A model generated the notes under the pieces. That model was given only the letters and a program-made list of their open reading frames with translations, was not told the DNA's origin and made no database searches. The position numbers and the translations under genes were made by a program. This document shows positions 1 to 39,162 of a DNA stretch of 39,162 nt, piece by piece. The DNA comes from a virus (lineage: Duplodnaviria; Heunggongvirae; Uroviricota; Caudoviricetes). The stretch is from the IMG/VR virus record IMGVR_UViG_2541047691_000016. One strand, written 5' to 3'. The first letter of the stretch is position 1. Each line of letters opens with the position of its first letter.

Positions 1-56
1 AGTCTTGAGTCTTGAGTCTTGAGTCTTGAGTCTTGAGTCTTGAGTCTTGAGTCTTA
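1..56 (-). repeat. Heptanucleotide tandem repeat (AAGACTC)n on the coding strand; at least 7 full units plus one unit cut by the window edge
   Basis: Plus strand reads agtcttg x7 (1-49) then agtctta (50-56); the array runs off the left edge so total copy number cannot be counted. Confidence 0.95.
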
Positions 57-60
57 ACAT
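1..60 (-). CDS. neuO: 5' end of phase-variable polysialic acid O-acetyltransferase (partial; gene body lies beyond the window)
   Basis: Minus strand reads ATG (60..58) TTA AGA CTC AAG ACT CAA GAC TCA ... = M L R L K T Q D S with no stop through the repeats; GGA 7 nt upstream as RBS; position next to a CUS-3-type endosialidase tailspike matches the known neuO locus. Confidence 0.6.
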   Translation of the reverse strand, partial: MLRLKTQDSRLKTQDSRLKT

Positions 61-76
61 ATTAGTATCCTACGTT

Positions 77-104
77 ATTTTACCACTAGTTACTTTTCTT
101 GTCA
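77..104 (-). promoter_or_regulatory. Putative sigma70 promoter for neuO (-35 TGACAA, 16-bp spacer, -10 TAAAAT) in an AT-rich intergenic region
   Basis: Hexamers read on the minus strand upstream of the neuO start; motif match only. Confidence 0.3.
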
Positions 105-213
105 TTAAAAAGCATTTAAATTTTTATATTTAATTTCGTTGACGTCAATGTTTTTTGCCAATGTACTTACTTCTTTATGTGATCAGTTCATATTTTTGAC
201 GCCAACGAAACAT

Positions 214-2649
214 TTAGTGCTTCCCTTCTATTAAGTCTAACCTAGCTTTTATTCTTTCTATTTCTCTGCGCTGCCATGCTGCCTCGATATAGAATAAGAG
301 ATCAGGTCTGACCCCCCATCTAGATCCTGCTGGCGTTATTTCAACGCGCTCAATGATGTCTTCCATTACCATCACTGGATTATCATCCTCATCAACAATG
401 ATGCTCCCGTCATTATCAGTCAGCGGCATTTCCCTTTGGCCAGTAATGACGTCATCATATACTGCGGGATAATCGTCATAGCAAAGAAAGGCATAGCGGC
501 ATGTTGTGCTTTCTTCTTCCATGAGTCCGTGAGAAATAAGAACATCACGAAGTTGCTGCGCGATTACACCATGATGTATCCTCGCCCCTTCTTCCCCCTT
601 TATAGCGACAGCGTTCAGCCATTTATAAGCGATATACCTGACGTCACCCCAGGCATCCAGCAATGTTTCGTCAGGAGAGACCGGCTCTGTCTTTAATGTT
701 CCGTCACTGGTAACCACAGGATTGGAGCCAAGATAAACTATCGAGAACCTGTTTCCCGGACCACCAAGAGCATTTACATTATCAAGATAAGGTTTAACAT
801 CTCCGTTCTCAAAAAGATGTTCGAGTGCGTTATATACCGCGCGACGTGGAGTACTGCTTCTGGAACCATGCAACGTTATCATTGCACCATCTGCTGAAGA
901 CGTTGTTTCACCGCCGCTAACGATTAATCTCTGAGCGGTAACATCATCAGACGGTACTTTCTTCGCAATAATGGCGTAATTACCCTCAAGTTTGACTTCC
1001 GCGCGAACTTGTCCTGATGTACCTGCATGGACAGTCAGTGACTGGACGGCAACATCATCTGTGAAATCAACGGGTACAGGAACCGTCCTCACGCCTGACG
1101 TCGACATAAAAGTAGGAAGCGTTCTGTTAGGAGTGGCTCCGTAGACAAAATCCCTTGAAACAAATTCTTCCTGTTTAATTTTCACCCTGAAACAATACAA
1201 ATCAGCCGGGTGACCATCGTGAACATAAGGATATTTTCTGTTGTTATCCCCTATGCTCCATGGGTTTAGAAAGTCTTCCCCACCGAAAATGTAGTACAGC
1301 CAGTTGTCTTTGATACAAACTGAACCAACACCAACCGCAGAGTTAACTATTCCGCCCTGATAAATCTGATCAGTAACATTAACCCACTCTACATTATCCA
1401 GACTCCACTCATTGACGTTAACTCTGGTCATAAATGTTCTTGGATAGTTTCCTGCATAACGGTTATCAGGTTCTCCTCCTTCCCACTCACCAAATGCGCG
1501 CTCACTGCCAAAAATAATCAGCTCATCGCCAACTTTGGCAAAAGGAAGGTTTGAGTGATGAACATTATTTGGGAAGCGAAGAGAATTCCATGATGTACCT
1601 AAATCAGAGCTTCTGTGCAATGAACTACCGGGTTGAGTACTTAATGTCCCCCTGGTCGTCAGATACAGAATGCCATCATAATATTTTACACATGGCTCAG
1701 ATGCATTCGCCTCATATTCTGCAGGTATGCGTCTGCGAACAAAGCTACCAGGAGAACCGAAAGCATCAGAGAAATAGAGTATCCCAAGCTCGCGTGGACC
1801 AATATCACCATTATGGTAGCCAACAGCAAAACTGTTATCGCTAATCGTCGCAAAACTGTGAATCTCAGTAACAGGAGTGCTTCCGTCAACAAAAGAAGGA
1901 ATAGTTCCAAGACTGGTTTTTCTCCATGGTGACGAGTGAAATGATGTACCAAAACTCCAGTATCTACCCTCGTTATTCTGATCCACATCCTGGGTATTTT
2001 GCGTCGTAACTGTAAAAGTATTTTTATCAATAACAGTAGTCACCGTCATATTCCCGGTAACACCTGTAACACCAGAGTTTGAGAAGTTGACAAAATCACC
2101 AGCAAATAATCCGTGATCAGTAATGCGAATATAAGCGACTTGCTGATTTGCTGCTTTCGTTATACCACCATAAACGCGAAGGCTGCGACTCATTGGGCGA
2201 TCCCACAACTCTGCAACCTGCAGTTTATTTCCGCTCACGGTCCGCGTCTCAATTACAGCAAAAAGGCGATTTCTGACAACCCCCATACTCATGCAGTGAT
2301 AGTTAACTGTGGGATAGTTTTCATGTAAATCTGTAAGCCATTCCGGCGTTGTCCAGGTCTTCCCGTCATCTCCTGAGCGAACCCATGCAACATGGAGGTT
2401 ATTTACACCATGGCGGTCTCCAGCCATAAAAGGCGCATAGATGACATTGTCATATACAAACGTTTTATCCTGCGTCCAGGCGTTGTACCACGGTGTATCT
2501 GTAATTTTAAATAACTCTCCCTGGATAAAATCTTCAGAAACATAAAAAAGAGGCTGACCCGGTATTCTCTCAAATAAAAAACGAGCATTTTTAAATCGAC
2601 TGACATCTGGAAGAGTTGATACTTTAAAAGTAAGCCCTCGCCCATCTAT
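214..2649 (-). pseudogene. Tailspike endosialidase (endo-N-acetylneuraminidase), catalytic and C-terminal chaperone part; separated from its head-binding domain by IS2
   Basis: Translation aligns along its length with endoNF-type endosialidase (IPGQPL, DGKTWTTPEWLTDLH, PMSRSL, NFSNSGVTGV, RIHHGVIAQQLRDV motifs as recalled); the ORF-track start at 2676 is a GTG inside the IS2 terminal repeat, so the first 9 codons are IS-derived. Confidence 0.85.
2645..2649. repeat. IS2 target-site duplication copy (TCTAT)
   Basis: Identical 5-mer directly flanks both IS2 ends (2645-2649 and 3981-3985). Confidence 0.85.
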
Positions 2650-2660
2650 TGGATTTGCCC

Positions 2661-3566
2661 CTATATTTCCAGACACCTGTTATCACTTAACCCATTACTG
2701 GCTTGCTGCCGTAGATATTCCCGTGGCGAGCGATAACCCAGTGCACTATGCGGATGCCATTCGTTATAATGCTCGAACGCCTCTGCAAGGTTCTTTGCTG
2801 CCGTTAACCCGTCTGGTTTGGGCATGACACTGATGTAGTCACGCTTTATCGTTTTCACGAAGCTCTCTGCTATGCCGTTACTCTCCGGACTCCGCACCGC
2901 CGTGCTCTTCGGTTCAAGCCCCAACATCCGGGCAAACTGCCGTGTTTCATTAGCCCGGTAGCATGAACCATTATCCGTCAGCCACTCTACTGGAGACGCC
3001 GGAAGCTCGTTGCCGAAGCGGCGTTCCACCGCTCCCAGCATGACGTCCTGTACTGTTTCACTGTTGAAGCCGCCCGTAGTGACCGCCCAGTGCAGTGCCT
3101 CACGGTCACAGCAGTCCAGCGCGAACGTGACTCGCAGTTTTTCTCCGTTATCACAGCGGAACTCGAACCCGTCAGAGCACCATCGCTGATTACTTTCTTT
3201 CACAGCCACTCTGCCTGTATGTGCCCGTTTCGATGGCGGTACAGCAGGTTTTCGCTCAAGCAACAGCGCATTCTGGCGCATGATCCGGTAAACACGTTTG
3301 GCATTGATCGCAGGCATACCATCAAGTTCTGCCTGTCTGCGAAGCAGCGCCCATACCCGACGATAACCATACGTGGGCAGCTCTCCGATAACATGGTGTA
3401 TACGGAGAAGCACATCCGTATCATCAGTGTGACGACTGCGGCGGCCATCCATCCAGTCATCGGTTCGTCTGAGAATGACGTGCAACTGCGCACGCGACAC
3501 CCGGAGACAACGGCTGACTAAGCTTACTCCCCATCCCCGGGCAATAAGGGCGCGTGCGCTATCCAC
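2661..3566 (-). CDS. insD: IS2 transposase OrfB (InsD, DDE integrase domain)
   Basis: 301-aa ORF recognised as IS2 InsD; overlaps insC as expected for the -1 frameshift fusion. Confidence 0.9.
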
Positions 3567-3889
3567 TTTTTTGCCCGTCCATATTCAACGGCTTCTTTGA
3601 GGAGTTCATTTTCCATCGTTTTCTTGCCGAGCAGGCGCTGGAGTTCTTTAATCTGCTTCATGGCGGCAGCAAGTTCAGAGGCAGGAACAACCTGTTCTCC
3701 GGCGGCGACAGCAGTAAGACTTCCTTCCTGGTATTGCTTACGCCAGAGAAATAACTGGCTGGCTGCTACACCATGTTGCCGGGCAACGAGGGAGACCGTC
3801 ATCCCTGGTTCAAAGCTCTGCTGAACAATTGCGATCTTTTCCTGTGTGGTACGCCGTCTGCGTTTCTCCGGTCCTAAGACATCAATCAT
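3524..3889 (-). CDS. insC: IS2 OrfA (InsC, HTH regulator/transposase N-terminal part)
   Basis: Translation from the ATG at 3889 ([18 protein letters not shown]...) matches IS2 InsC; the ORF-track start at 3934 is an upstream extension. Confidence 0.88.
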
Positions 3890-3964
3890 CTGCTCTCCAA
3901 TGACTAGTCTAAAAACTAGTATTAAGACTATCACTTAAATAAGTGATATTGGTTGTCTGGAGAT

Positions 3965-4495
3965 TCAGGGGGCCAGTCTATCTATCTTTTCACCACCTGT
4001 TGCAACAGAAAGTAATTCTGATAGAGCTGATGTATCATCATGAACACCATCACCAATAGCCCCCCACCCTCTTACATCATAACTGTCTCTCCATCTTGCT
4101 ATCTGAAGTTTTGGGTATTTATTCGCTCCATCTGTGTCTTCTAATTGCTGCCGTAACTGATCAGGATCATACTTCAGCACATTAGGAAAATAGAACTGCT
4201 GCGCACCATACGCATCATAAACAGCCATAGAATGGCCTTGCACGGTAACGAATTTGGCAATCTGTCCGTTATATACCGGATATCCAGCAGCGTTAATGAT
4301 TATTGGTTGCGAAACAGGAACGTGAGAACCGTCTTCATTCTCCACATAGACCTGAATCTGGTTTTCTGTATTTACAGGATCAGTGTCAATTTTACCGATA
4401 TAAATTTTGCCATTGGCTACGGCTTTAAAAGAACGCGCCATAGTGAAGAGTTGCGAAGGCATCGATACGATCACATTGGCTGTAATGTCTGTCAT
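3965..4495 (-). pseudogene. Tailspike N-terminal head-binding domain (P22 gp9-like); native sequence is 4495..3986, then the frame runs into IS2 and stops at 3965
   Basis: [40 protein letters not shown]... closely resembles the P22 tailspike N-terminus; the last residues (DRLAP) are IS2-encoded. Confidence 0.88.
3981..3985. repeat. IS2 target-site duplication copy (TCTAT)
   Basis: See partner repeat at 2645-2649. Confidence 0.85.
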
Positions 4496-4553
4496 TTAAT
4501 TTGCTCCAGATACAAGGAATCGCCGAAGCATGGCTACGGTGAATTTTGGGCAT

Positions 4554-4576
4554 AAAAAAACCCAGCCGAAGCTGGG
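4554..4576 (-). terminator. Intrinsic terminator downstream of ant
   Basis: Minus strand: CCCAGC-UUCG-GCUGGG hairpin followed by a U7 run. Confidence 0.6.
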
Positions 4577-4595
4577 TCGTTGCGTTGGTTATCTA

Positions 4596-5498
4596 TCAGT
4601 AGTTATGTACTGAAGGAGGTAATTCTTTATTCTTAAGTCTCATCCATGCGGAAAGATTCGTTGGTCCGTCTGGCTCATTAATATCAACATCTCGTGTATG
4701 GTTGATTAAAACATCTCTCGCCATTCCGATAACATACGAGAATTCATGACCGTAGTCGTAGCATCTGCCGGAATAGTTCGATTGAATTTGTTTTAGCGCC
4801 TGATACAGTTCGCGGAATAATGCCTGTGAGCGGTTGGCATAATCCCATAGCCATACAAGGCTGTTTACTTCTTTTGCAGAAAGCTCGTTGGTTTTCTTCT
4901 CTTGTTTGCCGATGAACTCACCTTCAAGCACTACCCTGTGGATGTACTCTACTGCTTGTGGTATCTGAGATGCATCAAGCTCTTCAATACTTTCCACATT
5001 GAAACGCTGATGAATCATTGCATAAGCTTCTGGGTACATTAGATGCTTTTTGCTGACTAGCATATTTACAGCATCACGAAGCGGAGTCCTGTCATCAACA
5101 GATGTTTTCTTCCGTGCATTTGCTGCCTCTCCCTTTGTCCAGTAGTCATGCAGCACAGTAAAGCATTCTTCCTGGTACTGAATCAGTTTATCGCGGATGT
5201 CAGCACGAACTTTCTCAGGGTTGATGCTGAACAGCCATCCATTTAACTTCTTCAAAGGAAGGCAGAGTAGCTTACGAAGCTTACCATCAGCGGCAACCAT
5301 GTTCATATGAACACAGTTGAATTTGCTAATCTGCTTCATGAGTTTTGTTTGCTGCGTTGACCAGCTCATTCCGAGGTTTTCAACGATTGGCTTCATCGCA
5401 ACATATGCAACTCCGGCAGCCATGGCGGTGATAATTTGCTGACCGTTGAATGGCACGTAAGAGGTGTTCACTGCTTCTAAAATTGCTATACTATTCAT
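4596..5498 (-). CDS. ant: Antirepressor Ant (P22 Ant-like, 300 aa)
   Basis: [26 protein letters not shown]... from the ATG at 5498 with GGAG RBS; the ORF-track start at 5564 is an in-frame upstream extension. Confidence 0.88.
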
Positions 5499-5577
5499 GT
5501 TGGTTTTTCTCCACGGATTTACCGACAACCGAAGCCCTGACTGTTCCAGCAGTTGGGGCTTCACTGTTTTGATTTCT
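5499..5577 (+). ncRNA. Candidate sar-like antisense RNA complementary to the ant ribosome-binding region
   Basis: Extended -10 (TGcTATACT, 5484-5492) on the plus strand inside the ant 5' end; GAAGCCC/GGGCTTC hairpin (5531-5562) followed by a U-rich tract; arrangement matches P22 sar. Confidence 0.4.
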
Positions 5578-5730
5578 TTGCCGCATCAAGCATCACTTCT
5601 GAAAACGTGCGCTTGCCACTGAATACTCTTTCTCTTCTCAATTTTTCGTTCGTGCCAAATGATTCGCCATGAACAAAATTTGGTCTTAAAATGGTAATCG
5701 CAATCTCTTTGACTACTGCATCCAAGCGAA

Positions 5731-5883
5731 TCACACCGTTACCCCCTCTCTCTTCAGGCTGTCTATCAGGCGCTTGATAACCTCTGAGTTAAACGACCTG
5801 CACTCTTCCTTTGCCCTGCTACCGATAGCATCCTTTAACGACTGCGGCATCCTTACCAAAATCTTACTTATTTCTTTCTCCAT
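5731..5883 (-). CDS. arc: Arc-like ribbon-helix-helix repressor (50 aa)
   Basis: MEKEISKILVRMPQSLKDAIGSRAKEECRSFNSEVIKRLIDSLKREG resembles P22 Arc; GGAGGG RBS upstream of the ATG at 5883. Confidence 0.8.
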   Translation of the reverse strand: MEKEISKILVRMPQSLKDAIGSRAKEECRSFNSEVIKRLIDSLKREGVTV

Positions 5884-5997
5884 GTTACCCTCCACGCAAA
5901 CAACTCTTTTCGAATACAAAAGATAGCAAAGTGAGTATATCTAGTCAAAATTTTTTTGCATACACTTTGCTATCAAATTGAATACCAAAGGTGTTAT
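5884..5997. promoter_or_regulatory. Divergent Pant/Pmnt control region with candidate Arc/Mnt operators
   Basis: Lies between divergent arc and mnt; perfect 11-bp inverted repeat ATAGCAAAGTG (5923-5933) / CACTTTGCTAT (5963-5973), each embedded in AGATA...TATCT-like symmetry. Confidence 0.5.
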
Positions 5998-6246
5998 ATG
6001 GCAAAGGGTGTGTCAATTTCTCCAACTACGGTAAGAATCCCTGAATCTTTACGCGAGGCTCTTGCTGTCAGAGCATCAAAAAATGGTCGCTCTGTTAACT
6101 CCGAGATCGTCATGATTTTGCAAGCCGCGATTGATGAAGATAGGTCGCCAAAGTCAGTTGAGTCATTTGCTCAGCAAGAAGCTGATAAATTCAAAGAGGC
6201 GCTACTTGAGACGCTAAAGACCATGTATGCTAAGGATGAAAAATAA
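5998..6246 (+). CDS. mnt: Mnt-like ribbon-helix-helix repressor (82 aa)
   Basis: MAKGVSISPTTVRIPESLREALAVRASKNGRSVNSEIV... with a C-terminus like P22 Mnt; the ORF-track start at 5956 is an upstream extension. Confidence 0.75.
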   Translation: MAKGVSISPTTVRIPESLREALAVRASKNGRSVNSEIVMILQAAIDEDRSPKSVESFAQQEADKFKEALLETLKTMYAKDEK

Positions 6247-6782
6247 TGCTGCACACAATTCATTTCTTATGCCCTGTTAACACTGCCACTGTTGGGCAAC
6301 TTCAGAACCACTGTCTCACCGCATTATCTCAAGGCGCAACTGAATTAAATATCCATATATCAAGTCAGGGAGGGGAAACTGCTGCTGGCTTTACTGCGTA
6401 TAACTTTCTTAAGTCACTCCCTGTTACCGTTAGAACTCACAACATAAGCAATGTTGAATCCATAGCTAATATCGTTTTCCTGGCTGGCTCAGAACGTTTC
6501 GCAAACCCATTATCAAGATTCCTGTTACATCCTCTATTATGGTGCTTTGCCTCCCCAGCCGCCGACCATGCCAGATTGAGAGAGTACGGGAAATGCCTCG
6601 ATAACGATCTTGATCGCTTCGTTGAGACGTTCAATATCGACATCGGAACCCATATTAGGTGGGCATCCCTGATAGCAGACTCGACCATTTTGGATGCTAA
6701 CAAGGCTCTTGAGCATGGCATAATTAATTCCATAAAAACTGCAAGGCTGGCATCCAATCAGGCAAACTGGTGGGTTGTTTGA
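6246..6782 (+). CDS. Truncated ClpP-family (S14) serine peptidase-like protein, 178 aa, translationally coupled to mnt
   Basis: ISSQGGETAAGFTAYNF...SNVESIANIVFLAGSERFANPLSRFLLHP aligns with the ClpP core (INSPGG..AG..IYD..GQAASMG..LLTAGAKGKRF..NSRVMIHQP), with Ser, His and a candidate Asp in register; about 40 N-terminal ClpP residues are absent; start overlaps the mnt stop (TAATG). Confidence 0.65.
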   Translation: MLHTIHFLCPVNTATVGQLQNHCLTALSQGATELNIHISSQGGETAAGFTAYNFLKSLPVTVRTHNISNVESIANIVFLAGSERFANPLSRFLLHPLLWCFASPAADHARLREYGKCLDNDLDRFVETFNIDIGTHIRWASLIADSTILDANKALEHGIINSIKTARLASNQANWWVV

Positions 6783-6807
6783 TGGGTAAATCATGATTAC
6801 TCCTTAT

Positions 6808-6834
6808 AAAAAACCCACCTGACGGTGGGTTTAG
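6808..6834. terminator. Bidirectional intrinsic terminator between convergent genes
   Basis: AAACCCACC-TGAC-GGTGGGTTT hairpin with A/T runs on both sides; overlaps the stop codon of the 149-aa gene. Confidence 0.65.
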
Positions 6835-7280
6835 TCAAACATAGTGTTTCTAAAGTCTCTCGCATACCCTGCTAACACTCTCATTCTATTATGATTGTTA
6901 GCAGACATGTGAGCTACAGGATGAAAAAGAGCAATCAATGAATACCTGTTCTCATCAAAAAGATTTTGTGCATAAACGAGAGCGGTATTGGATGTTTTAT
7001 GCCACTGCAACTTTTGCGGTGTGCTGATATCTGTGCCATTTTTTATTGGCTCAAATTTATTTTCACCAATTGCTAAATGAAGGTGCATAAGGCCTGCATC
7101 TTCAATATCAGGAGGTCGATGATAAGAGGTGTCTCTGCCAAAATAGCTGGGCAACGTTCCCGTAGACTTGTAGATGATAAAATCATCTACAAGTGTTTGT
7201 TTTAAATCAGGAAACTCAACAAAAACCGGGGAGAAAAAATAGTCAAAACTATCCTGATTATATTCCACGGTTACTTGCAT
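6831..7280 (-). CDS. Hypothetical protein, 149 aa (distal gene of the AT-rich immI two-gene operon)
   Basis: ORF with GAGG RBS 8 nt after the upstream stop; AT-rich; no family recognised. Confidence 0.6.
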   Translation of the reverse strand: MQVTVEYNQDSFDYFFSPVFVEFPDLKQTLVDDFIIYKSTGTLPSYFGRDTSYHRPPDIEDAGLMHLHLAIGENKFEPIKNGTDISTPQKLQWHKTSNTALVYAQNLFDENRYSLIALFHPVAHMSANNHNRMRVLAGYARDFRNTMFD

Positions 7281-7288
7281 GTTTTACC

Positions 7289-7855
7289 TCAGTGGAAGTT
7301 ACCAGAGTGAAACACACGAGTCCCGTGCTCAGCAAGCGCACGCAAACCAGCCATATCTACGGAACTATCAAAAACAACCGGAACACATGAGCGTTGTTTA
7401 ATAAGACTATTCAGGTTGGTTACGGCAGATCTGGCATCAGCAACAACGATATAGATATCTCTTGCGATCTCTTTAAAATCAGCAGAAGCTTCTTTGAATA
7501 CCGATTTCATTGCCCCTTCAAGTCCTCTCAATTGATGCTCTATCAATCGAGACTTTTCTGGTTCAATGATAGACAACACATTGTCTACATTCTCATCGGT
7601 AGCGTTTGCAAGAACACGATAAGCGTATTTCAGCATTCGAGACAATTCTTTAATCGAAGACACCGCCTCATGAAGCTCATCATTAGCCCGTTCACTGCTG
7701 AATGAGGATTGATGGTAAGCGTGCTGAACGTTATCAGTAACAACCACCTCACAACTGAACGCAGAAGCTTGCTGTAATAGCAAACCTATTGCGACTCCAG
7801 CTTTGGCAGCGTTCAAGCTAAACATTTCATCAATCCCATTAGTCTCATTGCTCAT
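7289..7855 (-). CDS. Hypothetical protein, 188 aa (proximal gene of the immI two-gene operon)
   Basis: ATG at 7855 preceded by AAGGAGG with a 5-nt spacer; the ORF-track start at 7885 is an extension; no family recognised. Confidence 0.6.
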   Translation of the reverse strand: MSNETNGIDEMFSLNAAKAGVAIGLLLQQASAFSCEVVVTDNVQHAYHQSSFSSERANDELHEAVSSIKELSRMLKYAYRVLANATDENVDNVLSIIEPEKSRLIEHQLRGLEGAMKSVFKEASADFKEIARDIYIVVADARSAVTNLNSLIKQRSCVPVVFDSSVDMAGLRALAEHGTRVFHSGNFH

Positions 7856-8030
7856 ACAAACCTCCTTCTTATCGGAGATTATCAATAGCTATGCATCCAT
7901 TGAATACACGCTATGCGCAATAAGTTTACGTCACGTGATATCATTATGCAACCACCGTTCTATCACCGACTAACTTTACTCCCACTCCTATACATCATCT
8001 GGTATCCTGCGCAAAACTAAGGAGGTTGGT

Positions 8031-8381
8031 GTGAATGCTCAGTCTGTCATCATGGTTTTCCTTGGGCTGATTGTCGCAAAACTATATCCAGACTGGTGGA
8101 AAGGGGCATTAGCTACTGTCGCCATCTATTTGCTTTTATCCATCGTTAAGCGATCACTCGCTGAGACCGTAAATCAAGCAAAACGTTTCTCATTTAAGAG
8201 TTTAATAAACTATGTTACTGGGCTTATTTTTTGCCTTTCAATTCTGATCGCTTCGGCTTTTTTGCCCGTATCAATAGCTAATTTTTTTGGCGCACCATAT
8301 GAGGTAGGTTATCTATTCTCTGTTTCCTGTCTTGCCATTGCTCTTCTTTACCTGTGGACGAGATCAAAGAATAAAAATTAG
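8031..8381 (+). CDS. Small multi-pass membrane protein (116 aa), divergent from the two-gene operon; positional analogue of P22 sieA
   Basis: GTG start with TAAGGAGG RBS (8018-8025); three to four hydrophobic segments; no sequence-level identification. Confidence 0.55.
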   Translation: MNAQSVIMVFLGLIVAKLYPDWWKGALATVAIYLLLSIVKRSLAETVNQAKRFSFKSLINYVTGLIFCLSILIASAFLPVSIANFFGAPYEVGYLFSVSCLAIALLYLWTRSKNKN

Positions 8382-8398
8382 CCATCCGTGGCTGCCAG

Positions 8399-10414
8399 TT
8401 ATTGAGCTTCTTTTTGTGATGCCTGTGCGACTCTGGTGAGCGATTGTGTGACCGTACTGATCGCTCTGTCATATGCTGTGCTACCTTTTGGCGTATTTGC
8501 CAGACGTAACAAGGCATTTCGTATAACAGGGCTTTCGTATGCCTTCGCAGCTCCTCCTACGACACCAGCAGCAGGAACAACAAACGCAGCCGTTTTTAGC
8601 ATCCCCGCTAATACTGCTGCGTTTATGATGCCACCACCAACTAACAATCCATAAAGCTGCTGACCATTTAAGTTTTGAACGTTCGCTTTTGCCGCGTGTC
8701 TTGTATCGTTGAGGTATTTAATAACGCCGTCCAGTTCCTTTCCATGTACGCCTTTAAAGAAAGTTGCTGATTGCTTCCTGTTCCGGTGTAACGCATTAAT
8801 AAACTTTTCAACACTAATATTTCCAGACGGATCAGTCGCCTTATCTACAGCATTCTGAACTATGGCTGCTCGTGCGTTTTGCCTACCATTGTCATCCAGA
8901 AGCCTGTAAAGCTGAGAACGTTCTGATGGGTTTTGGCTAAAAACGAGTTTTGTTACATCCTCAGGTGTAGCCTTGCCGCTGGCTATTGCCTTTTGAACGC
9001 GCGTTCTTCCCATCATGTCATTGAATCTAGCCCATGAGCGATCAACCCTAGACATATTGGCAGCTTCTTCTGAGCCTAGTTTTTGGGATACTGCTTTTTT
9101 CATATCCGCTGTATATGCCTTGTAGACAATATCGCTGGCTTTCTGGAGCGTGTCTTTATCAACAGTCTCGTTTGAATTCATGAACCGCTTTCGAAGGTCA
9201 GTTCTGTTTTCTCTCGCCAGACGCAGGTCATTGGGTCCGCTGGTGATATCGTCTTTAAATTGCTGCAAGACTTTTACCGCGGCTCTATCCTGAGATTTGC
9301 CCGGGCGGCTTAACACGGCAATCTGATTGTCGATAGCTTTTACCGTGTTTGAGAGATCGACAGGGGTATCCCCCATAGCGTCAATTATGCGGTTATATCG
9401 CTTTCCTGCTGCCTCAATGAATTTTTGTTGCCCTTTAGTCGCAGATTCATAAAGCTGTTTATCAGAAATGCCACCCAGACCATCGCTAAATGTTCTGACT
9501 AAATTTTCTCGTGCTTGTTGTTGATTCAGCCGATTCTTACCGGTTCCAAAAAAAGGAACTCTTTCGCCTAATGTCTGAGCCTGACTCTGCATAAAGGTTT
9601 TATCTTTCAGCGTGTCACTGGTCATTAACGGCAGGTTTCTTTCCGACGCAAAATCGACAGCAGCCTTTGCTTCCGGTGACATCTCACCGCGAACAGCCCT
9701 GGAAACCGCACTAACTGTATTTTCCAGCCCCTTGCCAACACCACCAATGCCAGCAGAAATTACCGTTTGTGCAGGATCAATATCTTCTCCGCCAGCAAGG
9801 CTGGTGCCACCCTGTAGTGCTAAATCTGTAGCAGCTGATTTCCCTATGGCACCAAGCACCGTTCCAGCCCTGCCCGCTGGTGTGAACGCTAACGCATTAG
9901 CAAGAAACGAAGTCAGGTCTTGCGGTGATAAACCTGGCTTGTTCAGGGCATAATCACCGGATGGCAGGGAAACGATAGTGTTACCCTTCTCATCCTGCCT
10001 TAATTTCGCCCCCATACTCTGAAGAATCTTTTCCTGAGACGCGTCGGAGCCGAAAAGTTGAGACCATCCAGCCTTCAGGGCATCCATGCTTAGTGAGTTC
10101 AACTCAGGGGCAGCCCCAACATTTTGCAGTCTCTCCATTTCTGGTGTCATTCGGCTTTCACCGGTAACGGCATCGCGCATTGCAGCACCTAAAACAGCCC
10201 CTTGCTCAGCAGAGCGATCTAGTCCTTCCTTCTGCTGAGTGGCAAGCTGTGCATATCCTGATGCAAGTGAGTTGTCTGCTGGCGATTGCTGAACACCTTG
10301 TTGTGTTGGCGCTGACTGACCAGCAAAATACTCATCAATGGCGGACCCAATATCTTCCGTGCTCGTACCATCAGGAAAGGTAAATGTCTTACCATTTGCA
10401 GTTACTTTCATCAT
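8399..10414 (-). CDS. Ejection (DNA transfer) protein, P22 gp16-like
   Basis: 671-aa ORF last in the gp7-gp20-gp16 order after the tail needle; Gly/Ala-rich, typical of E-proteins. Confidence 0.8.
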
Positions 10415-11862
10415 TCCACCGTAAATTGAATGCCTGATTTTGACGTGTAGCTACCTCCTGCTGATTGCTGAGTAGCTGGCTGTTGCCTTGATGATTTCTT
10501 CCCGCCATTACCAACATTAACGTTATATTGCTGGTTGTAATTGTCGGTATATTGCTGAATGTCGCGCATTGATTGTTGCAGCGCTTCAGGACTTGAGAAA
10601 TCAGGCTTTGGCATACCCTGAAAATACCTATTGGCCTCTGCTTCGGTGTTGATGCCAGATGCCCCCATATCTCGGGCTGCTGCAATCCCCTGATTTTGCA
10701 TTTTGCCCATGATTCGCTGTGCAGCGTTGTATGGCCTCCTCTCCTCAACACCAGATGCCCTGCTACGAATATCTGCACCAAGAGCAAAAGAACCTGAAGA
10801 ACCTGTAATACCTGTCATGAAGCCAAGATCGTCAATTGATGCGCCAGAAATTGCATCAAGATCTTTCTTCATTTCGTAATTCTGTGCATTAGCTGCCGAT
10901 GTAGCCGGAGCAGCAATAGAACTGGCGGGGACGCGAATCATATTGCCCTCGTTGTCTATTCCTTCGTAGAACGCATTAGCACCAGCGCCGTGAAGCTTCC
11001 TACCAACCGTTACCGTTCTGCCATCTGCCAGTTGCACAACATTCTCCCCGCCAGCATCAGGACGACCTCGAACACGAAGATATGTCTTTTGTTGCTCTGG
11101 AGACAGGCTGTTGAAATATTGATATTCTTTAACAGATGCAGGAACAGCACCTCCAGCAGTGCGCAGGGAGTTTTCACGGCTAACAGCAATGCTTTGCGCC
11201 TTTAAACCTTCCCCAGCTTTATTGCTGCGAATCGTCTCTGCCAACTTGCCACGCTCAATATCCCGACCTTCCATTTGATCTTTGATATCGAAATACTTCT
11301 CATGACCGAGAGAAAATAGTGCCAGATTACCTGCGAAGTGCTGGAAGCCCTGCGGGTCATTAACCTGCATTTCCGCAATAGTTTCTGGAGGGATACCTAA
11401 ACGACGCATCTCCTTTTCGTTATCCATCATGAACCTGCCAAATGCACCCGGACCAAGCGACGAAGCGACCTGAGCCTTAAGCGCCAGATTGCCAAAATCA
11501 TCCCGCTGGGCGTCATCGACATACCCCATGCCTTTACGGACTTCCTCAAACTCTTCGGGGAATGCTGTAATAAGATTACGCATCTGCTCCCTGTCGCCGG
11601 ACGCATAAGCATCCGCATAACCTTTCTGGAATGCCGCTTTACGCTCCTGCTTTTGCTGCTGCTTATAAATATCAGCAACTCCAGCCAGACCACGAAGACC
11701 TGTCAGAGCAACGTTATTTGCACCTGATCGAGCCAGTTCATTGTTTTCGCGGATCAGACCAAGCGTTGCGTTAATGTCGCTTGCCTTTGGCGCATTCTCA
11801 TTTTGCGTACCGATGCCAGCCAGAAACCCACCAGAATTAATACCCTGTTGCCACGTAGCCAT
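10411..11862 (-). CDS. Ejection protein, P22 gp20-like
   Basis: 483-aa ORF, position and size match P22 gp20; overlaps the gp16 start. Confidence 0.8.
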
Positions 11863-11872
11863 TGATTACCCC

Positions 11873-12565
11873 TTAAAACAACGAGCCAAGCAGACCAAGA
11901 CCAGCACCGATACCAGCACCCCACGGAGTTGATAGCTCGAGAGCACTGGCTATGCCACCACCCAAAAGCGCACCGGATGCAGCACCACTAACACCCTGCT
12001 GCAATGCTGACGGTCGGTTGGCGTTTGCCGCTGCAAGAGCCGCGCTTTGCTGTGAAATCTGACTCATGTTGTTGGCATATGTTTGCCCGGCGTTTGCCTG
12101 CCCCTGAAGAGCGCCAAGACCGATATTTGCCAGGTTGTTGTAATTGTTCATTTGTCCAGATAGCCATTGCTGACCAAGCGTTGGTGCGATTGTTGCTAAC
12201 TGATTACTGGTTGCGGTGGAACCCAATCCACCTGTTGCTTCCGCTGCCGCCAGACTCTGATAGCGAGCCTGACCTGCAAGGTCTTTATACTGCTGAGAGT
12301 TGTAATACTGGTTAAGTGCCTGACCTTGCCCTTCCAGAGACGATAAGTTCTCAAGGCTGCCGACATACTTCCCAGCCAGAGGAGTAAACAGCTTCAGGTT
12401 GTTCATGATGGTGTTGAACTGCTGATTTTGCAGGTCTGCGGCATACTTCTGAGCTTCTGCTGCATACTTTGCGCTTTTATCAGAACTGCCACCTTTCCCG
12501 CCTTTTTCAGGGTAATAAGGTTCCTCGCCGCGCAGTTTTCTGCCCAGCGTAAATGCATATAACAT
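11873..12565 (-). CDS. Ejection protein, P22 gp7-like
   Basis: 230 aa; N-terminus MLYAFTLGRKLRGEEP resembles P22 gp7. Confidence 0.8.
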   Translation of the reverse strand: MLYAFTLGRKLRGEEPYYPEKGGKGGSSDKSAKYAAEAQKYAADLQNQQFNTIMNNLKLFTPLAGKYVGSLENLSSLEGQGQALNQYYNSQQYKDLAGQARYQSLAAAEATGGLGSTATSNQLATIAPTLGQQWLSGQMNNYNNLANIGLGALQGQANAGQTYANNMSQISQQSAALAAANANRPSALQQGVSGAASGALLGGGIASALELSTPWGAGIGAGLGLLGSLF

Positions 12566-12567
12566 GG

Positions 12568-13023
12568 CTATCTCCCGTGATTCAGGAAGTCGATTAGTTC
12601 TTCGCGTGTGGCGCTGTAAAACGTCACGTCATCCACGCCTTTGAAGTATTTCTTGATGGTTCCTACACGCTTAAGGCCAATCATTGCGCAGTACATCTGC
12701 CCGTGGCGGAATTTGCGTGCAGCAAATGATGTGACGCACTGAACGGTGGTGTTGGTCAGAATGTATCGCCAGAACGCCAGCCCTATTTCCTTGCTGAAGC
12801 CGCGAATCTCTGGCAGGTACATGGCGTGGCAATCGAATGTAAGCGGCTGAATCTCCTGATAGTAAACAATGCCGCCAAACTGACCGTGCACGTTCACCTC
12901 AAAGTAACGGCAATCAGGTTTGTAGTCGTATCCATCACTGTTGTTGCTCCCGGCGATGATGTCAGGGTGATTTCCTACTGCTTCGATCAGGTCGATGTTT
13001 CGCGTTGGTTTGAATGTAATCAT
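12568..13023 (-). CDS. Virion assembly protein, P22 gp14-like
   Basis: 151-aa ORF between tail needle and gp7, as in P22 gene order. Confidence 0.7.
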   Translation of the reverse strand: MITFKPTRNIDLIEAVGNHPDIIAGSNNSDGYDYKPDCRYFEVNVHGQFGGIVYYQEIQPLTFDCHAMYLPEIRGFSKEIGLAFWRYILTNTTVQCVTSFAARKFRHGQMYCAMIGLKRVGTIKKYFKGVDDVTFYSATREELIDFLNHGR

Positions 13024-13724
13024 CAGTCAATCAGCCCATGTAATCTAAGTGCTGTTTCAAGCGCCAGAATACGCTGCCGCGCCTGCTCCAAACCTGTAGC
13101 GATAGCTGCGACTTCGGATTGTGTGTACGTAGTGCCGACCGTGTATGACTGGTTAGCGTTGAATGAGCCAAGAAGTGGTGTGCCTGTGGCCGCTGTCCAT
13201 CCGGTCTGCCTTGCTCCAACGACCTGAATTCCATCAACTGAATATGATGTTTTTACATCCAGCGGTGACGCAAGAGACTGCGATTCTGTTACGGTTTTCG
13301 ATACGTAATCACTCTTAATGTCAGATATATCGCTTTCTACGCCATCCAGTCTTTGGTCAACAGTGACCAGATGCGCCTGAATATCGATAACCTCATCCAG
13401 CAAGTAATCAACATCGCTACGCAGTACAACTATCTTCCCTTCGGCGGTTGTTAACCTGACCTCAAGGAGATTTATCGCTTTTGTGTTTGCGGTGATTCTT
13501 GCATCGTGGTCAGCCAGTTCGACATCCTGTTCATCGTTTTTCACCTGAGCATCGTAAGCGCCCTGACCAGCCTGATTTGCTTTCCCGGCAATTGCGCCGA
13601 CATCAGCCCCCTGATTAATGACATACAGCAGGTAAGACTGGCTGAATATATTGCGTGGAAGGATTGATGTATCGAGCCGCGTCGCCTGCACAATAACAGG
13701 GGTGTTGAGATTCGAATCAGCCAT
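13023..13724 (-). CDS. Tail needle protein, P22 gp26-like (233 aa)
   Basis: [36 protein letters not shown]...ALRLHGLID resembles P22 gp26 at both termini; ATG at 13724 overlaps the gp10 stop; the ORF-track start at 13826 is an extension. Confidence 0.88.
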
Positions 13725-15142
13725 TACTCGATCCTTATCTGGCAGCCAGACAGAGTGACAGGTGACTTCGTGATAACGCGCAATTTGAAGCCGACATTTT
13801 TCCTGATGCGCCCGACTCGCTTCCACAAAACGCGTTTGTCGTAAACAAACGGTTCATTCTGCTCAATCATCTGCTCACGACCGTAATTGATGCCGTCAGT
13901 GGTTGCAGAGAGAAAAAGGCGGTCGGCGTACTGCGCAACGCCAGTTGAAGATTCAACTTCAAGGTCGAAAACTCTGGCGTTATCCGCTTTGAACAGAGGA
14001 GTAAACAGCAGATGCTCCTGTTGCTTGTCGTACTGGCTGCTGATGTCGAATTGCAATTTCCCGGTCACGGACTCCAGCTTATCGCCGCACGTTATCTGAT
14101 TGCCTTCGTAAATGAAGTCGATAGCGCGGTACACATCGTCATACAGACCTGTTTTCAGTACACACCATTGCGGAGCATTGGCGCTTGAAGATGCGTCGTA
14201 TACGAGGACATGGCGCGGAAGATGGATAATCAGCAGCTCATGCGCATCAAATCGCAGAGACTCCATCACACCATCAGCCAGTTCATCAGCAGTGTAGGAG
14301 CGAAGAATTTTCTCAATGCTCGCGCTGGCGATTGGTGACACCTGCCCGGAACCGATGATGTATACAGACGGCGCACCTGTTGCCGGATTGCTGATGAACG
14401 CATAGGAATCAGCGAATGGCGTTTTGCAATAGGTTCCGGCGATGCCTTTTTGCACCATCAGTGATGGCTGTGCGACATACAAAGCAGCACCAACGGTGGT
14501 TGCGCCAGTCAGGGAGAAATATTCAATAGTCGATGAACCAAAGCAGACGATGAAGTCTCGCCATGTCCCGATACCGATGATGCCGTCCGGCTGCGATTCT
14601 GCGCGATATTGTGCACTGTATCGGTCAGGGTGCGATTCGTCTTCAAGGTCAGTGATAAACCATGAATCAGTTCCGTCTTTTGACCACGCATAACGCCCAC
14701 GTAAGCGAGTAATGTCGCGAACTGAACCTAACTCATACTGCGTGAATCCACTGTCTGTAGGCCAGTTTGAGACGGTTTTAACCGTGCCATCATAACGATA
14801 CTCGACCAGTTGACCATTAACGCCTACAGCCTGTGATGTTCGACCATGCGCCATTGATACGCGACCACTTCCGGCGACGTCACCGACTTCGCTTTCTCCT
14901 TTGTACAGCTTGCCGCCACACACGCGATAAACAGCACTCTGCGCCATGTTGTACTCGACGCCGCGCGATATACCATTCACATCAGAACGTTTGGCAATGC
15001 CCGGGAATGAGCGAAGATATCCGCTGCTGTTCAGGATTTCTTTGGGCGTAGCCAACATATTCACTGGCAGATAGTCGATATAGTCGGCGTTTCGAAAGTC
15101 TTTGCCGACACCTTTCATAAGCGGAAGTTGCTGAATCGGCAT
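13724..15142 (-). CDS. Tail accessory protein, P22 gp10-like (472 aa)
   Basis: Same length as P22 gp10 and in the syntenic position. Confidence 0.85.
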
Positions 15143-15151
15143 TTATTCACC

Positions 15152-15613
15152 TCACGTACTCGGATCATCTTTCTCGATGTAAAACCGATTCCACGTAAAC
15201 GCGCTTTTGTTACCACTACCGCGAGGCATGTCATTTCGCCGCTCAAGTGGTGGTATTTTGGTTAAAGCGATACAGATTGTCTGATATGCACTGTCAGCAG
15301 CGGTAAGGAGAGCGTCTGACGGCTGAATGACGTTATCCATGCACACTTGCACAGCGAGTTTCAAAGCGACGCCATCATTTGCCCATGCAGGGATACCTGA
15401 ATCATCGTCAGGTAACGGCATGATGCCGTTTTCTGTATCAGCAAACTGATATCCAAGCTCGATACCTTTAGCCTGCCATGCTGCCATCATGTCTTCGAGG
15501 TCATTAATGGCATCTTCAATTGCCTGAGGGTCAGCATCTGTCAACGTGGCATTGGAATACAGCCCGGCTTTTCGTAAAGCCTTTAGAACGAGATCACCCT
15601 TCGTTTTCGCCAT
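15152..15613 (-). CDS. Tail accessory / head completion protein, P22 gp4-like
   Basis: N-terminus KTKGDLVLKALRKAGLYSNATLTDADPQAIEDAINDLEDMMAAW resembles P22 gp4. Confidence 0.85.
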   Translation of the reverse strand: MAKTKGDLVLKALRKAGLYSNATLTDADPQAIEDAINDLEDMMAAWQAKGIELGYQFADTENGIMPLPDDDSGIPAWANDGVALKLAVQVCMDNVIQPSDALLTAADSAYQTICIALTKIPPLERRNDMPRGSGNKSAFTWNRFYIEKDDPST

Positions 15614-38916: not shown

Positions 38917-38961
38917 ATTGCCTGATTTGCAGGTTCGATTCCCTATTCGGAGATAGCACTC

Positions 38962-39162
38962 ATGCAACACGAACTACAACCTGATTCACTGGTTGATTTG
39001 AAATTCATCATGGCCGATACTGGCTTCGGTAAAACCTTCATCTATGACCGGATTAAGTCCGGCGACCTGCCAAAAGCCAAAGTTATCCACGGGCGAGCAA
39101 GATGGTTATATCGTGACCATTGTGAATTCAAAAATAAGCTCTTAAGCCGCGCCAATGGGTAA
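38962..39162 (+). CDS. xis: Excisionase-like DNA-binding protein
   Basis: 66-aa ORF ending at the last base of the window; LVDLKFIMADTGFGKTFIYDRIKSGDLPKAKVIHGRARWLY looks like an excisionase/AlpA-type HTH; int would lie beyond the window. Confidence 0.6.
   Translation: MQHELQPDSLVDLKFIMADTGFGKTFIYDRIKSGDLPKAKVIHGRARWLYRDHCEFKNKLLSRANG

Follow-up and report, generated by a model that had tools for sequence, protein, structure and literature searches.

The AAGACTC repeat array of neuO at the left edge of a CUS-3-like prophage sequence, and an IS2 element in the adjoining tailspike gene

The neuO locus

Positions 1–213 of the window (the window is the whole stretch of DNA analysed, 39,162 nt in length) are, with a probability that we put at about 97% on the basis of sequence comparison, the 5′ end of neuO together with the region that precedes it. 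This cargo gene of an E. coli K1 prophage, which is CUS-3-like and of the P22 type, encodes the polysialic-acid O-acetyltransferase. Four points are shown directly below: what the locus is, its frame rule, an intact enzyme open reading frame on the other side of an assembly gap, and an extensive polymorphism in repeat number between genomes. The poly(psi) contingency locus of neuO was described in phage CUS-3 of E. coli RS218 (Deszo et al. 2005, as cited in PMC3046976 and PMC13001214).

The window begins inside the repeat. From position 60 onwards the minus strand reads ATG-TT-(AAGACTC)×7-AAGACT, and the edge of the window falls within the array; in plus-strand letters the window starts with AGTCTTG repeats. 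The neuO start codon is at positions 60..58 and the two nucleotides TT are at 57..56 (together 56..60, minus strand). The 5′ part of the poly(psi) array occupies positions 1..55 of the same strand, with the first unit at 55..49, seven full AAGACTC units at 55..7 and the first six bases of an eighth at 6..1. The first-pass annotation had reported at least seven perfect units directly after a minus-strand ATG-TT, and this count is confirmed. The layout of neuO given in PMC3046976, where the variable number tandem repeat begins two nucleotides past the start codon, is the same as that in the window.

Tandem Repeats Finder shows positions 1–55 to have a period of 7 with 7.9 copies, 100% matches and a score of 110. 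The chance expectation for 48 further bases that keep a perfect period of 7 is about 2e-24 occurrences per window. Outside of the array, AAGACTC is found once more on each strand in the whole 39-kb window.

None of the three minus-strand frames of the array contains a stop, and the array encodes RLKTQDS in rotation. The plus strand displays a stop in every frame, and because of these stops a reading of the array as a plus-strand feature was rejected. The part of the neuO coding sequence that is present in the window consists of the first 20 codons. Thus a 7-base unit whose coding strand is free of stops is found in the 5′ coding region, which is the arrangement of a simple-sequence-repeat translational contingency locus.

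Comparison with CUS-3 and related sequences

Window positions 1–2649 have 100% nt sequence identity to positions 2313–4961 of the CUS-3 sequence (accession number CP000711.1). The annotation of CP000711.1 refers to a "neuO poly(psi) domain" with 19 copies of AAGACTC. The neuO/CUS-3 arrangement proposed in the first-pass annotation is therefore supported. In CUS-3, neuO is directly preceded on its strand by the endosialidase tailspike gene siaK1, and int and attL are found beyond neuO. The AAGACTC unit, the ATG-TT start, a 153-bp spacer and a location downstream of an endosialidase tailspike are shared by CUS-3 and the window; in addition, CUS-3 shares the enzyme body with scaffold KE698993.1 (see below). 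There are three differences. The CUS-3 record has 19 units (OFF), whereas the array analysed here is broken by an assembly gap. The tailspike gene carries an IS2 element here, unlike that of CUS-3. Lastly, about 6.7 kb at window positions 4929–11658, together with parts of the early region, differ from CUS-3.

The segment at 4929–11658 lies between the start of the tailspike gene and the injection-protein genes and, like those parts of the early region, is not CUS-3-like. It contains a ClpP-like protease gene (6246–6782, plus strand), a gene of the YafO toxin family (6831–7280, minus strand) with a 188-aa partner upstream, and Arc-family repressor genes.

A second close relative is phiv205-1 (accession number MN340231.1) from the avian pathogenic strain APEC DE205B, which is 99.7% identical over window positions 1–2649. 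Its array is resolved and has 18 repeats (ON). The phiv205-1 tailspike is also interrupted by an insertion sequence, but by a different one, with three transposase-associated open reading frames, and at a different site. It should be noted that the intact 258-aa neuO open reading frame of phiv205-1 (positions 2642–3418) is mis-annotated as a "general stress protein".

Outside of the phages, OatWY of N. meningitidis W-135/Y (PDB 2WLC) is likewise a left-handed beta-helix hexapeptide acetyltransferase that acts on sialic-acid capsules. The match to OatWY begins at residue 39 of the query, such that the N-terminal heptad domain of NeuO is not covered. OatWY is the capsule O-acetyltransferase of serogroups W-135/Y and is not a phage gene, and the poly-psi domain is unique to NeuO (PMC3046976).

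The array and the enzyme body in scaffold KE698993.1

Since the window carries only the first 20 codons of neuO, the locus was extended by an exact look-up of the 176-aa chimeric head-binding protein encoded in the window. This yielded scaffold KE698993.1 of assembly GCA_000456265.1; the protein was also matched in a contig of more than 1 Mb. The reverse complement of window positions 1–14495 aligns with this scaffold with 0 mismatches (14,495/14,495 bases).

The order of sequences in KE698993.1 is ATGTT, 8 AAGACTC units, 30 N, 8 AAGACTC units, and then the sequence GTTTTCCGTTGATG that opens the neuO body, followed by the integrase gene. All 646 bases of the neuO body are identical to those of CUS-3 (646/646). 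The translated protein matches the Pfam family Hexapep and agrees at every residue with NeuO in the crystal structure PDB 3JQY, "Polysialic acid O-acetyltransferase" (E-value = 1.2e-153). The nearest solved relative after 3JQY is OatWY (E-value = 8e-31). Extension of the sequence to the left, which had been put forward as a check of the neuO assignment, thus leads from the array through the 30-N gap to an acetyltransferase open reading frame identical to CUS-3 neuO and to 3JQY.

Because the array runs into the 30-N gap of KE698993.1, the edge of the window marks a point within the repeat at which the assembly breaks. The first-pass annotation had stated that the ON/OFF state cannot be called, on the grounds that the window cuts the array. 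This is correct, and it goes beyond the mere cut, as the array is interrupted by 30 N in the assembly itself. If the gap is taken as an estimate of size, the array has ~142 bases, or roughly 20 units; n mod 3 (n being the number of units) is not derivable from such an estimate. The gap inside the array also causes gene callers to give, instead of neuO, a stub of 20 aa and a Hexapep fragment of 233 aa at this locus (14436–15228 of the retrieved scaffold sequence).

No copy with a resolved array was obtained for this strain. The 42-mer at the IS2/tailspike junction gave no exact match in the viral_contigs or genome_contigs collections, and an exact look-up of the 820-aa chimeric endosialidase yielded the gapped KE698993.1 only. 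The Logan contigs end at IS2.

Frame rule and mechanism

The effect of the number of units on the reading frame was determined by rebuilding CUS-3 neuO with n = 15 to 24 units and translating each version. Full-length NeuO is obtained at n = 15, 18, 21 and 24 only, with chain lengths of 251, 258, 265 and 272 aa, respectively. At the other values in this range, translation stops 3 or 18 codons past the array. The same follows from frame arithmetic, in that 5 + 7n + 1 = 0 mod 3 is satisfied only when n is a multiple of three. The rule that a multiple of three gives full-length NeuO, as proposed earlier for this sequence, thus holds by direct translation as well as by arithmetic. Published work likewise gives multiples of three as the ON state, with a copy range of 2 to 93, and reports that among ON alleles a larger number of heptads results in greater catalytic efficiency (PMC3046976).

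The mechanism is as follows. Translation from the ATG at 60..58 (minus strand) enters the AAGACTC array directly, and the frame of the ribosome at the far end of the array depends on the number of units, because 7 is not a multiple of 3 and the unit is free of stops in every frame. When n is a multiple of three, the product begins with M-L-(RLKTQDS)n/3 and continues into the acetyltransferase, a left-handed beta-helix of 214 residues (ON). With other values of n, a stop is met 3 or 18 codons past the end of the repeat (OFF). According to published work, replication adds or removes units by slipped-strand mispairing, and this leads to a reversible, stochastic switching of capsule O-acetylation.

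Variation of repeat number in E. coli genomes

A 1001-base segment of CUS-3 that spans the array was used to search all complete E. coli genomes, and the lengths of the matched spans were converted to n. The length of the locus differs from that of CUS-3 by exact multiples of 7 in 44 out of 45 sampled full-length matches. Across these 44 sampled complete genomes the inferred n is 5–60, and the state is ON in 12 of them (12/44). Strain MS7163 has an inferred n of 21, which is equal to the published count from Sanger and long-read sequencing (PMC13001214).

Units were also counted directly in three sequences: ATCC 11775 has 30 (an intact CDS is annotated), UPEC129 has 5, and phiv205-1 has 18 (intact CDS). 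Annotated intact neuO CDSs were found exactly at n = 3, 18 and 30.

The one sampled genome that is off the multiple-of-7 spacing relative to CUS-3 is that of UM146. Its array shows one imperfect 6-base unit, AAGGTT, among ~20 units (at ~905–910 of the retrieved segment). This unit may be a genuine break in the array, or else an error dating from older sequencing.

In a published survey of 64 complete genomes, 3–53 repeats were found and 65.6% were OFF; within one culture, 93%, 1.9% and 5.4% of the cells had 21, 20 and 22 repeats, respectively (PMC13001214).

Upstream spacer and putative promoter

The region between the tailspike stop codon and the neuO ATG is a 153-bp AT-rich spacer (61..213, minus strand) with a G+C content of 27%, compared with 47.5% for the whole window. 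A search of 5426 complete E. coli genomes with window positions 56–1200, which include the spacer, gave matches in 194, of which 189 have ≥99% identity.

Two sites on the minus strand resemble sigma-70 promoters. One consists of ATGACA (105..100), a 17-base spacer, and the extended −10 element TG-n-TAAAAT ending at position 77, and has 10 out of 12 matching positions. The other has TTGACG (148..143), also a 17-base spacer, and AAAAAT ending at position 120, with 9 out of 12 matching. An AGGA ribosome-binding site is found 7 bases ahead of the neuO ATG. The number of promoter-like sites counted (5, compared with 1.9 ± 1.5 in shuffled sequences) is not significant by itself, and no mapped transcription start was found. 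No terminator-like hairpin was found between the tailspike gene and the neuO ATG when window positions 1–600 were scanned.

Positions 61–213 had been described as AT-rich and promoter-like. The AT-richness is evident from the base composition and "promoter-like" is a fair term, where promoter is to be read as a resemblance to the consensus. It appears that neuO may be transcribed in the lysogen from a putative promoter of its own within the spacer.

IS2 in the tailspike gene

Upstream of neuO and on the same strand, positions 214..2649 (minus strand) encode the endosialidase portion of siaK1, the CUS-3 tailspike gene. At this point the sequence is interrupted by a 1331-bp IS2 element of the IS3 family (2650..3980, minus strand; orfA 3524–3934, orfB 2661–3566). 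The 5-bp target sequence TCTAT is duplicated on either side of the element, at 2645–2649 and 3981–3985. The alignment with CUS-3 stops at position 2649 and restarts at 3980; on the CUS-3 sequence the two aligned parts overlap by 5 bases.

The head-binding N-terminal part of the tailspike is left as a 176-aa fragment (3965..4495, minus strand; Pfam Head_binding), the last residues of which come from IS2. On the other side, the endosialidase open reading frame extends to a GTG at position 2676 within the IS2 end. Its 820-aa chimeric product displays the Pfam domains End_N_terminal, End_beta_propel, End_beta_barrel, End_tail_spike and Peptidase_S74. The tailspike sequence proper is thus found at 214–2649 and 3981–4495, with the endosialidase and head-binding parts separated by IS2. 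An IS2 at the same tailspike site is absent from complete RefSeq E. coli genomes, in which thousands of IS2 copies were matched elsewhere.

A prophage with a tailspike split in this manner probably forms no infectious particles. The IS2 insertion is a sign of prophage decay with retention of neuO, and it is the sole strain-specific feature of the locus. There is no sign of an effect of IS2 on neuO.

Two other neuO-carrying prophages with independent insertions in the tailspike gene or at its end were observed. In phiv205-1 the three-ORF element is at positions 6348–8669 and the 153-bp spacer is intact, as is neuO with its 18 repeats (ON). In FDAARGOS_1296 an IS1 clips the 3′ end of the tailspike gene (1150–1900 of the retrieved segment), and neuO and the spacer are intact, with 3 repeats (ON). 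As neuO is spared in both, these insertions agree with the published comment that neuO is kept as phages of the CUS-3 type decay (PMC9659370).

Several features of this arrangement touch on a further proposal, which we regard as unlikely. IS2 is able to activate downstream genes. The element is on the same strand as neuO, ~2.6 kb upstream, and its transcription might reach neuO because no terminator-like site was found in positions 1–600, which comprise the 3′ end of the tailspike gene and the spacer. Read-out from IS2 could then conceivably drive both the endosialidase open reading frame that lacks the head-binding part (from the GTG at 2676) and neuO in the lysogen. If this were true, the decaying prophage would become a fixed capsule-remodelling module, and the insertions in the two other prophages would reflect selection that immobilises the element and keeps neuO.

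Prophage context

The sequence in the window together with KE698993.1 places neuO between the endosialidase tailspike gene and int, i.e. in a P22-like prophage location. The prophage extends from beyond the left edge of the window, where the neuO body, int and attL are located, to the attR core of a CUS-3-like prophage, TTGCAGGTTCGATTCC, at positions 38927..38942 (plus strand). The window ends with the stop codon of a short open reading frame at 38963–39162, which is outside of the prophage. The kps/neu capsule genes of the host, without which neuO would lack a substrate, are outside of the window as well. Scanning of the whole window detected no tRNA gene; the right end displays only the 16-bp attR core.

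Alternative interpretations

Two other readings of the array were considered. The array might be the stump of a decayed neuO, truncated or rearranged as in the argW copy of strain CE10, in which case the repeat would control nothing. CUS-3-like prophages tend to decay, and alleles of neuO that have been truncated are known, e.g. in CE10 (PMC9659370); the tailspike of the present prophage itself carries IS2, and the link between the array and the enzyme body spans a scaffold gap that was joined by the assembler. However, the identical perfect repeat is found at both contig ends. Beyond the gap the whole neuO body is present and shows 0 differences from that of CUS-3, and int comes next, as in the canonical arrangement. 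The CE10 truncation, moreover, takes away the 5′ end of the gene, which is the very part that is kept here. A decayed stump is therefore considered highly improbable.

The repeat might instead work on transcription, either through the spacing of a promoter or through the binding of a regulator such as DsdC, and not on the reading frame. Contingency loci that vary the spacing of promoter elements occur in other bacteria. DsdC binds inside neuO as well as downstream of it, and an influence on slippage has been speculated on by the authors of that work (PMC9659370). The position of the array argues against such a role, as it is past the ATG and not between the promoter hexamers. The array is also open in three frames on the coding strand only, and the intact annotated CDSs are at exactly n = 3, 18 and 30. 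In addition, the published frame-shift mechanism has experimental support, and recoded, locked-ON alleles also speak against a transcriptional switch (PMC3046976, PMC13001214). With this evidence a transcriptional switch has almost no likelihood, and the assignment of the array to a translational contingency locus at the 5′ end of neuO is preferred.

Function and significance

The enzymatic activity of NeuO, switching within a strain, graded activity, and protection from phages and neutrophils are taken here from the literature. O-acetylation by NeuO is reported to give protection from K1 phages and from neutrophils and to result in greater serum sensitivity (PMC13001214). Protection from K1 phages is also described in PMC9659370, where neuO transcription is reported to depend on DsdC.

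Judged by its sequence, which is identical to the reference, the locus in the window is the contingency locus already described, and its recognition brings no new biology; the value lies in annotation. The neuO gene is split by the assembly gap in KE698993.1, and its phase state is unreadable from short-read assemblies, which constitutes a hazard for annotation. The tailspike split by IS2 is one more case of the decay of a CUS-3 prophage in which neuO is kept. The locus as a whole is a textbook example of a mobile contingency locus, in which a prophage-borne repeat toggles O-acetylation of the K1 capsule.
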